Below are positions 12,417 to 14,429 of a DNA stretch of 32,000 nt, in pieces. The stretch is from Candidatus Thorarchaeota archaeon (GTDB lineage: Archaea > Asgardarchaeota > Thorarchaeia > Thorarchaeales > Thorarchaeaceae). The stretch is from positions 60,001 to 92,000 of the forward strand of contig SHMX01000006.1 in the NCBI GenBank assembly GCA_008080745.1, read 5' to 3'. The position numbers and the translations under genes are program-made. Under the pieces are notes generated by a model. That model ran no database searches and was not told where the DNA came from. It was given only the letters and a program-made list of their open reading frames with translations. Numbering within the stretch: the stretch's first letter is position 1; each line of letters begins with the position of its first letter.

Positions 12417-13316
12417 TTACATTTCAAGTCCACTAGGATTTTTCCAGACATCTGTATTGAAGTATCCAACAGTCAAGGGTTTTGCTAGGCTGGGTCGCTG
12501 AATCCACATCAAGAACGGTCTATTGATAACATAAGGTTCCGTTCTTCTAGGAGCTGCGGCCTTGAGAATACCTATTGCTGCAGCACTCTTGATTCGAAAT
12601 CCCTTATGGTTCATCTTCAGTTTTGTCTGTTGTAACGCCTCAGCAATCTTATAGTAAGAGATATCAGATGAAGCAATGTCTACTTTGAGACCTATTAGCC
12701 AATCAAGAGATCCTTCCAAGTCTAAATCTATCATTGGAAACCTAAGACCTGCATACTCATGATTGCATGGCTTGAGGGAGTCCTGAATCTTCTGAGCGTA
12801 TTCAATCATATCAAAACCTGATGGAGCTTTATCGACCATCACCATAAACACTTCATCTGAACTCTCAGTTGGAATTCTAACTACGTGTTCTTCTACGACT
12901 TCAGAGTCCAGAAGATTATATCCTTGCATCATATTAACACACGGATAGACAGCATCATCATAACCAAGAAGTTCTGAACTCATTCCAGTAGTGTGCCAGA
13001 AACCAGTAACATCTAGTTTACATGCAGCTGCTAGACCACTTGGAGGGATAGGACTAAGTTGGATATCAAAACCATGTTCTTTCAACCAAGCATTAATCAC
13101 AGATACGTCTCTATCAGCGATACTTTCAATCTCAGGAATCTTCGGAATCTCCGATTTGCATTTTTCATAGAAATCATTCATGAAATGACGTTGAATATCA
13201 CTTTTTGGGTTCCACTTTTCAACACGCTCGTTTTTTTCAATAAACATCTCAGCGGCAAGTAAGGCTCCAACGATGGGATATGTGACATGGATAGAAGTCT
13301 CATTTGTGTATTCCAT
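12417..13316 (-). CDS. Minimal serpin-fold protein, copy A (299 aa)
   Basis: Serpin landmarks in order: VINAWL (helix F), KLDVTGFW (s3A/breach Trp), PCVNMM, LRFPMIDL (s2B/s6A), ALQQTKLKMNHKG (s5A), NRPFLMWI (serpin signature). Start trimmed to ATG 13316 to match copy B. Confidence 0.78.
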   Translation of the reverse strand: MEYTNETSIHVTYPIVGALLAAEMFIEKNERVEKWNPKSDIQRHFMNDFYEKCKSEIPKIPEIESIADRDVSVINAWLKEHGFDIQLSPIPPSGLAAACKLDVTGFWHTTGMSSELLGYDDAVYPCVNMMQGYNLLDSEVVEEHVVRIPTESSDEVFMVMVDKAPSGFDMIEYAQKIQDSLKPCNHEYAGLRFPMIDLDLEGSLDWLIGLKVDIASSDISYYKIAEALQQTKLKMNHKGFRIKSAAAIGILKAAAPRRTEPYVINRPFLMWIQRPSLAKPLTVGYFNTDVWKNPSGLEM

Positions 13317-13391
13317 TATTATCCGTCCTAAAACCGTATCGAACACGAACCGTTAAGCTTGACAACTAATAAAGAATAAGGAAAAGAGGGA

Positions 13392-13412
13392 GGATGTCTG
13401 AAAATGACATCC
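13392..13412. promoter_or_regulatory. Palindrome GGATGTC-N7-GACATCC (operator or terminator hairpin)
   Basis: Perfect 7-bp arms; followed on the minus strand by a pyrimidine/U-rich run; second copy at 14530-14550. Confidence 0.5.
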
Positions 13413-13529
13413 TTCAATAATTTCGACCTATTGAAGATGAAATATTATAGATGAAATATATCATCTATACCAAGTTGGAATACAATCGAGAGGTTCTAGA
13501 TAGAACCAAAGATATAACACCTCGGAGGC

Positions 13530-14429
13530 TCACATTTCTAGTCCAGAGGGATCTTTCCAGGCATCAGTGTTGAAATACCCAACTAGAAGAGGTCTTGCAA
13601 GGGTAGGTCTCCGAATCCACATCAAGAAGGGTCTGTTTATGATATAGGGTTCCGTTATTTGCGGAGGCGCGCATTTTTCCATAGATAGAGCTGCAGCACT
13701 CTTGACACGAAATCCCTCGTTGTTCATCTTCAATTTTGTCTGTTGCAGCGCTTCAGCAATCTCATAGCACGAGATATCAGAGGAAGCAATGTCTACTCCA
13801 AGACCTACTAGCCACTCAAGAGATCCTTCCAAATCTAAATCTATCATCGGAAACCGTAGACCATCATACTCAAGATTGCACGGTTTTAGTGAGTTCTGAA
13901 CACTCTCAGCATATTCTATCATATCAAAGCCCGATGGAACTTCGTCAACCATAACCATACATACTTCATCTGAACTCTCAGTTGAGATTCTAACTACATG
14001 TTCTTCTACAACATCAGAGTTCAGAAGATCATATCCATACATCATTTGAACACACGGATAGGTAGCATCATCATAACCAAGAATTTGAGAACTCATACCA
14101 GGGGTGTTCCAGTACCCAGTAACATCCAGTTTACATGCAGTTGCTAGACCACTAGGAGGGACAGGGCTAAGTTGTATATCAAAGCCATGAAGTTTCAACC
14201 AAGCATTAATCACAGATACATCTCTATCAGCAATGCTCTCAATCTCAGGAATCTTCGGAATCTCCGATTTGCATTTTTCATAGAAATCACTCATGAAATG
14301 ACGTTGAATATCACTTGTTGAATTCCACTTTTCAACACTCTCAGTTTTTCCAATAAACCTCTCAGCAGCATACAATGCACCAACAATGGGATAGGTAACA
14401 TGTACAGAAGTCTTGTTTGTGTAATCCAA
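13530..14429 (-). CDS. Minimal serpin-fold protein, copy B (299 aa, TTG start)
   Basis: Same landmarks as copy A; 58 of 299 residues differ from it in a hand alignment with no gaps. Confidence 0.78.
   Translation of the reverse strand: MDYTNKTSVHVTYPIVGALYAAERFIGKTESVEKWNSTSDIQRHFMSDFYEKCKSEIPKIPEIESIADRDVSVINAWLKLHGFDIQLSPVPPSGLATACKLDVTGYWNTPGMSSQILGYDDATYPCVQMMYGYDLLNSDVVEEHVVRISTESSDEVCMVMVDEVPSGFDMIEYAESVQNSLKPCNLEYDGLRFPMIDLDLEGSLEWLVGLGVDIASSDISCYEIAEALQQTKLKMNNEGFRVKSAAALSMEKCAPPQITEPYIINRPFLMWIRRPTLARPLLVGYFNTDAWKDPSGLEM

Follow-up and report, generated by a model that had tools for sequence, protein, structure and literature searches.

Divergence of the reactive-center loop in serpins is reportedly a theme that goes back to the classic report of Hill and Hastie in 1987. 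CrmA of cowpox virus, with 341 residues, is to our knowledge the smallest characterized serpin; it lacks helix D and inhibits caspases. Tandem serpins with loop-focused divergence and different targets are represented by SERPINB3/B4 (PMC4136820), bovine SERPINA3 (PMC4593666) and the SERPINA clusters (PMC12646145). Here we describe a tandem gene pair, copy A and copy B, from a Candidatus Thorarchaeota archaeon. The pair lies in a window of 32,000 nucleotides, the whole stretch of DNA that was analyzed (GCA_008080745.1, contig SHMX01000006.1, positions 60,001 to 92,000 of the forward strand). Both genes encode miniature proteins with a predicted serpin fold, and the two copies differ most in the distal reactive-center loop. 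We tentatively propose that they are putative inhibitors whose subsite specificities have diverged.

The two proteins align without gaps over 299 aa at 80% identity. As an earlier reading of the sequence alone had counted, 58 of the 299 residues differ and 8 of these lie within a single 12-residue stretch (residues 248–259), in which Lys252 is common to both copies; BLASTP counts 59 differences, as the TTG start of B is read as Leu. This stretch is the densest 12-residue window of the alignment, the runner-up non-overlapping windows holding 5 differences each, and a permutation scan statistic of width 12 gave p = 0.044. With the loop taken as a region predefined from serpin homology, 8/12 loop residues differed versus 50/287 in the rest (Fisher test, p = 3.5e-4), and the excess was also seen against the 3' flank alone (7/40 differing; p = 0.002). 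Codon comparison of A and B by the Nei–Gojobori method found 12 nonsynonymous and 4 synonymous differences in the loop, with nonsynonymous (dN) and synonymous (dS) distances of 0.68 and 0.65 and a ratio (omega) of ~1.0. Codons upstream of the loop gave dN 0.093, dS 0.47 and omega 0.20, and those downstream gave dN 0.127, dS 1.51 and omega 0.08. The claim that the loop is the site of greatest divergence between the paralogs was thereby upheld, with dN/dS of ~1 versus ~0.2 in the scaffold. Between these recent tandem duplicates the loop shows the nonsynonymous excess over the scaffold that marks paralog clusters, while both scaffolds are under purifying selection outside it. The invariant residues checked in the loop region (Asn236, Gly239, Pro267 and Phe268) are retained in both copies.

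That the divergent stretch is the reactive-center loop of a serpin-fold protein, likewise part of the sequence-only reading, was supported by structure prediction. The AlphaFold2 (AF2) model of A has a predicted local distance difference test score (pLDDT) of 87.5. Its single disordered stretch, residues 246–259 (pLDDT < 50), is the sole segment of low model confidence and lies between strand 5A with the hinge and the C-terminal PF motif. Comparison by VIA matched the model to cleaved CBG and PAI-1 (Z 18.6, root-mean-square deviation 3.4 Å over 262/299 residues), and Foldseek matched it to serpins with E 3.5e-11 and probability 1.0. A second AF2 model, of a family member ~38% identical, reached a VIA Z of 18.2 to serpins, and tengpin (PDB 2PEF) was among the structural matches (Z 15.8–16.7). 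On these models, the proteins have a true serpin fold, which is defined by a large sheet A, sheets B and C and the C-terminal strands 4B/5B. Sequence profiles barely register it: A and B score 20.9 and 21.2 bits against Pfam Serpin PF00079, below the 27-bit gathering cut-off, and the match is limited to the C-terminal 65 residues (profile positions 299–367 of 370). Among the homologues, 64/66 match Pfam Serpin at E < 0.01; against PDB serpins, the single sequence gave only weak matches, and a profile built from the 66 homologues reached E = 1e-7.

At 299 residues, the proteins depart from the canonical serpin architecture of ~350–400 residues with helices A to I. The segment before the IN-W-L helix motif spans 69 residues versus about 130 in ordinary serpins (~132 in a Trichinella serpin), and the alignment of the A model begins at PAI-1 residue 25. 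Judging by the order of its secondary-structure elements, the fold appears to lack helices A, C and D. No canonical serpin was found in this genome. Both proteins are probably cytoplasmic, no signal peptide being evident and the first residues forming part of the confidently modeled fold.

The change in the loop is lopsided. Copy A keeps a loop near the usual form of the family, GILAGAAP followed by a basic pair, and copy B is the derived copy: its Ser249, Glu251, Cys253, Gln257 and Ile258 have few or no counterparts among the 66 homologues, and it has lost the Arg-Arg pair of the usual loop. A sister genome of the same genus, the metagenome-assembled genome (MAG) GCA_014728035, has an identical gene order and its own gene pair, P0004 (which adjoins the M29 aminopeptidase gene, as B does) and P0005. 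Of the 18 changes specific to the B lineage, 4 fall within the loop (p = 0.003). At two more of its sites the three compared sequences are all different, and no loop enrichment of lineage-specific changes was found in A, P0004 or P0005. Loop omega between B and its ortholog P0004 is 1.24; pairwise values range from 1.0 to 1.4 on 12 codons only and are not clearly above 1. The positions that would face the core after loop insertion, 248 and 250, changed conservatively (Ile to Leu and Ile to Met), and the radical changes (Leu251Glu, Ala255Pro and Arg258Ile) lie around the putative cut site.

At 80% identity the pair is young rather than ancient, and the duplication behind it appears restricted to this one genus of Thorarchaeota. 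The family is carried by 24/87 genomes of the class Thorarchaeia, mostly in one copy, and the tandem pair is found in this genus only; one other genome has two copies ~540 bp apart and a third copy. The tree (P0005,(A,(P0004,B))), with strong support, makes B sister to P0004, and both occupy the same position beside the M29 gene. Simple one-to-one orthology of A with P0005 was rejected on tree topology and mixed informative sites (9/5/3), a pattern that points to conversion or unequal rates. A and B share an identical run of 51 nt (p = 0.009), and dS along their alignment ranges from 0 to 1.9. Although overall identity between the sister-genome genes is only 74%, they match perfectly over 82 nt at nt 779–860, a run that begins one codon after the loop; their loops nonetheless differ at 9/12 residues, so that the loop difference recurs beside a conversion tract in the second pair. 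From the two runs and the uneven dS, gene conversion has evidently homogenized parts of the flanks and not the loop. The same tracts, present in both genomes, would also be expected if the cluster of differences were a stretch that conversion had missed by chance, the loop being nothing special. We find this explanation hardly credible: loop dS is intermediate at 0.65, codons 260–299 reach dS 1.5 but differ at 7/40 residues, and the excess in the loop is nonsynonymous.

Across the family, the loop behaves differently. The sequence-only reading had treated hypervariability of the reactive-center loop as a mark of serpin paralogs diversified to new proteases, and family-wide this did not survive comparison. 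In ten phylogenetically independent sister pairs, pooled, the ratio of nonsynonymous to synonymous differences (pN/pS) was 0.34 for the loop, 0.21 for the rest of the protein and 0.16–0.50 for other surface windows, which places the loop inside the surface-window range. In the 66-sequence alignment, its mean entropy was 2.18 bits versus 1.64 for the whole protein, and five other non-overlapping 12-residue windows have higher entropy. A loop no more variable than other surface loops, the outcome named beforehand as fatal to the idea, is therefore what the family as a whole presents, and not what is seen within this pair. Subfamilies retain their own loop motifs, with GILAGAAP-KR recurring. The low family-wide pN/pS and the subfamily-specific motifs suggest that the loop is constrained where the gene is single-copy and free or driven to change where it is duplicated.

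The position of the scissile bond bears directly on what the loop change could mean. Two options for P1 had been put forward from the sequence: Ala253 in A and Cys253 in B, with Gly239 counted as P15, or Lys in both if the loop is one residue shorter. The first is correct as a count, and the second is better supported. In the wider family, the column of Lys252 is basic in 81/151 representatives (54%; Arg 68, Lys 13). Independently of any alignment, 64/144 wider-family sequences have Arg/Lys as residue 14 counted from the hinge Gly, and the second AF2 model has Arg247 directly after its inserted strand, which ends at residue 246. These three observations argue that P1 is probably Lys252 in both copies and that the difference lies in the flanking subsites. 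The hinge itself departs from the inhibitory consensus of ExGTEAAAA at P17–P9 (PMC8233489), reading H-K-G-F-R-I-K-S-A in A and N-E-G-F-R-V-K-S-A in B, with the Gly invariant and no Pro. The wider-family hinge is near-canonical (G-A-R-A/V-x-S-A-V-A). Together with the basic residue at a fixed distance, it favors an inhibitory ancestry.

We propose that a duplication within this Thorarchaeota genus gave rise to two tandem, separately promoted paralogs of a ~295-aa miniature serpin-fold family. Ongoing gene conversion would homogenize parts of the genes, with loop 248–259 left free or driven to change; copy B would have replaced the usual loop and lost the Arg-Arg pair, the scissile Lys252 most likely remaining the same in both. 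A and B would then trap Lys/Arg-specific serine or cysteine proteases in the cytoplasm as suicide-substrate inhibitors. Their subsite preferences (P5–P2 and P1'–P6') would be distinct, and with them the target or the kinetics of inhibition, A keeping the ancestral job and B taking a shifted one. To such a functional divergence of subsite specificity between two putative inhibitors we assign slightly less than an even chance. The initial claim that the copies bait different proteases went further, and only part of it stands. Loop-focused divergence within the pair speaks for it; it is weakened because P1 is likely unchanged, omega is ~1, the loop is not hypervariable family-wide, change is mostly in B and inhibition is putative.

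Several observations weigh against the proposal. The hinge residues from P14 to P11 are Phe, Arg, Ile/Val and Lys in turn, and at position 252 most Thorarchaeota members carry Leu or Ala instead of Lys; in the Thorarchaeota branch of miniature serpins, Phe at P14 goes with a P1 column dominated by Leu/Ala, not Arg. In both AF2 models the hinge lies in sheet A (in the second, the proximal loop too), the modeled strands being 239–247 in A and 234–246 in the ~38% identical member, and the best structural matches are without exception serpins in the cleaved, latent or peptide-filled state. The loop is not hypervariable across the family, neutral drift would be expected to yield the omega of ~1 found over its 12 codons, and copy B starts with TTG. 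When open reading frames (ORFs) were clustered over 25 Thorarchaeia and 38 all-prokaryote loci, no conserved partner was found beyond genus level, and none was a serine or cysteine protease.

The structural points could mean that the proteins are non-inhibitory and permanently loop-inserted, the hinge (residues 239–247 or further) forming a fixed sixth strand of sheet A and residues 248–259 serving only as a surface linker or as the epitope of a non-protease partner; their divergence would then be uninformative on proteases. Two independent models and the state of the matched structures agree with this, as does a hinge that alternates bulky hydrophobic and charged residues, far from the inhibitory consensus. 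However, inserted-state covariation is expected in true inhibitors too, so that the modeled insertion may stem either from their post-cleavage state or from permanent relaxation; AF2 does not distinguish a metastable native state from a stable end state. The low pLDDT of residues 246–259 is compatible with an exposed loop. Moreover, pLDDT over residues 241–250 averages only 53 in the A model, the loop motif is conserved within subfamilies, and a near-canonical wider-family hinge followed by a conserved Arg/Lys at a fixed distance is a P1 signature. We regard permanent insertion as improbable.

The codon-level points lead to another explanation, in which B, partly redundant after the duplication, let its exposed loop drift neutrally under relaxed constraint and gained no new specificity, the folded scaffold remaining constrained and conversion keeping parts of the flanks similar. 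An omega near 1 on 12 codons does not separate this from adaptation, and loop values of 1.0–1.4, which do not clearly exceed 1, speak for drift. Drift would also suit the lopsided change towards B and its weaker start codon (A and both sister-genome genes have ATG). The loop is conserved in single-copy lineages and relaxation appears only with two copies, and the uneven dS and the 51-nt identical run show conversion at work. On the other side, a scaffold omega of ~0.2 indicates that B is not decaying, and the 3' flank exceeds the loop in dS, yet its dN is five-fold lower. The core-facing loop positions changed conservatively, and the sister genome also keeps two different loops beside a conversion tract. 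Neutral drift is in our view unlikely, if a serious contender, and divergence of subsite specificity remains the explanation we tentatively favor.

No target protease can be named, and nothing found bears on the protease arms race that the sequence-only reading had raised. The neighboring M29 gene product was considered and rejected as a target, being a metallopeptidase, which is no mechanistic serpin target, and being kept only in close relatives. Recurring cross-phylum neighbor "clusters" were discarded as antisense ORFs inside the serpin gene. Among its peptidases, this genome encodes two small ones of the C14 caspase fold, a single Trypsin_2 protein (C8:62969-63376) and about ten S8 subtilases; for Peptidase C25, it gave only a sub-threshold match elsewhere. 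Peptidase_C14 (PF00656) is patchy in the class (21/87 genomes), occurring in 10/24 serpin-bearing versus 11/63 other Thorarchaeia genomes, with 14 serpin carriers lacking it. This association is weak, the genomes being related and many incomplete, and serves as a lead only. In its strongest form, the proposal would have A and B as working suicide inhibitors on the smallest known serpin-trap scaffold, adaptively splitting control of cytoplasmic Lys/Arg-specific proteases, with the two C14 peptidases as candidates. We consider this highly unlikely. If true, it would be an archaeal counterpart of serpin–caspase/metacaspase control in eukaryotes and their viruses.

The features of the locus are collected in the table. 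About 75 nt of conserved DNA precede each copy, with a TTTATTA box ~50 nt before the start, and the same DNA lies upstream of both sister-genome genes (four-way alignment of A, B and the two genes of the sister genome). The shared upstream DNA suggests that each copy probably has its own promoter. For copy A, a GTG at 13346 would give a longer product; it was dismissed as the start codon because homologues start at the ATG and the DNA upstream is conserved as non-coding. The TTG start of copy B (14427-14429, minus strand) stands where A and both sister-genome genes have ATG, in a surrounding AGGACGGATAATA context that is otherwise conserved; it may lower the translation of B. The adjacency of the M29 gene is kept in close relatives only, with the same order in the sister genome and at loci L047 and L063. 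Directly downstream of A on the same strand (11819-12375, minus strand) are genes for two small predicted membrane proteins of 82 and 83 aa. One of the two has a faint DUF7139 match, and both are retained in the sister genome, at 80 and 81 aa. A histidine kinase gene also lies downstream of the pair, with the two small membrane-protein genes.

Table. Coordinates of the serpin-like gene pair, its loop elements, upstream regions and other genes (window positions unless a contig is given)
Feature	Position	Strand	Description	Basis
Copy A (P0001)	12417..13316	-	299-aa miniature serpin; ATG start at 13316	ORF and translation
Copy B (P0002/P0003)	13530..14429	-	299-aa miniature serpin; TTG start	ORF and translation
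Distal reactive-center loop of A	12540..12575	-	residues 248-259, IGILKAAAPRRT; near the family's usual loop	
Distal reactive-center loop of B	13653..13688	-	residues 248-259, LSMEKCAPPQIT; derived loop	
Hinge of A	12576..12602	-	residues 239-247, GFRIKSAAA; Gly239 invariant in family; modeled beta strand beside strand 5A	
Hinge of B	13689..13715	-	residues 239-247, GFRVKSAAA	
Lys252 codon of A	12561..12563	-	best P1 candidate; column basic in wider family	
Lys252 codon of B	13674..13676	-	same P1 candidate; column basic in wider family	
Upstream region duplicated with A	13317..13391	-	TTTATTA box 13367-13373; AGGACGGA directly ahead of start	four-way upstream alignment
Upstream region duplicated with B	14430..14504	-	TTTATTA box 14479-14485	four-way upstream alignment
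M29 aminopeptidase gene	14566..15651	-	upstream neighbor; not claimed as target	Pfam PF02073, E 5e-77
Small Peptidase_C14 genes of this genome (G000)	C2:36546-37019 and C4:364720-365205			

A and B belong to a large unnamed family of miniature serpins of ~290 residues, whose carriers include ultra-small bacteria and archaea. A word-indexed search returned 69 clusters of ~300 residues; Thorarchaeota MAGs account for nearly all of them, and every one is annotated as hypothetical. An exhaustive profile search returned 2268 representatives at E <= 1e-3, of which 810 reached E <= 1e-30; lengths of 280–310 residues predominate in the best 150. When species-representative genomes were scanned, members turned up in Thorarchaeota, Hermodarchaeota, Woesearchaeota, Saccharibacteria and other Patescibacteria, Babeliales and Gammaproteobacteria MAGs. 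Three IMG/VR contigs (L073-L075; 152, 26 and 304 kb), predicted viral and two of them very large, hold distant members 36–38% identical to P0065. GenBank phages gave no tblastn match to copy A, and nothing was found suggesting a viral origin of the locus in the window. Literature searches returned nothing relevant on serpins in Asgard archaea, on minimal, truncated or short serpins, or on this family; the serpin phylogeny of Spence et al. left out sequences that fell short of the median length by more than 25% (PMC8233489).

Some members of the wider family have further peculiarities. P0114, P0138, P0156 and P0162 bear an extra N-terminal domain of ~85 residues with the motif HLGPIR..L..G.VVEW, which has no Pfam match and does not correspond to the missing serpin helices. 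One Thorarchaeia genome contains a broken gene copy (L027/L031, G016:C13:1430-2328), which is split and interrupted within the match by one TGA and one TAA. Bacteria, too, have miniature serpins in tandem pairs (L036, L037 and L040; Gammaproteobacteria, Pseudomonadales and Saccharibacteria MAGs). These pairs appear to be old because the partners are only ~26–32% identical to the query set; the partners may travel together.

Loop-focused divergence of duplicated serpins is textbook in animals, and the Asgard case extends the pattern while leaving the concept unchanged. Its greater value lies in the scaffold, a large unnamed ~290-residue serpin-fold family that Pfam barely detects. A young pair differing mostly in the bait loop offers a natural experiment on small-serpin trapping and specificity. 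If the proteins are inhibitors, they would define a minimal serpin; if they are not, they would reveal other uses of the fold.

The pair can be compared with several known systems. With animal tandem serpin clusters it shares recent duplication, a conserved scaffold and hinge, change focused in the bait loop and conversion on the flanks. Unlike those clusters, it resides in an Asgard archaeal host and consists of putatively cytoplasmic miniature serpins, 299 residues long, whose hinge is non-canonical; A and B share their likely P1, and omega is not clearly above 1. The likeness to CrmA lies in a pared-down scaffold without N-terminal helices, a predicted intracellular location and a loop that is probably about one residue below the standard count. 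Unlike CrmA, the present family is ~40 residues shorter, is barely detectable by sequence and carries a Phe/Arg/Val/Lys hinge, and its inhibition is putative. Canonical prokaryotic serpins, represented by thermopin, tengpin (PDB 2PEF), aeropin, chloropin (PMC10090351) and miropin, have 370–420 residues, pass PF00079 over their full length and carry an ExGTEAAAA hinge, unlike A and B; what they have in common with A and B is a prokaryotic host, the serpin fold and the C-terminal PF motif with strands 4B/5B.

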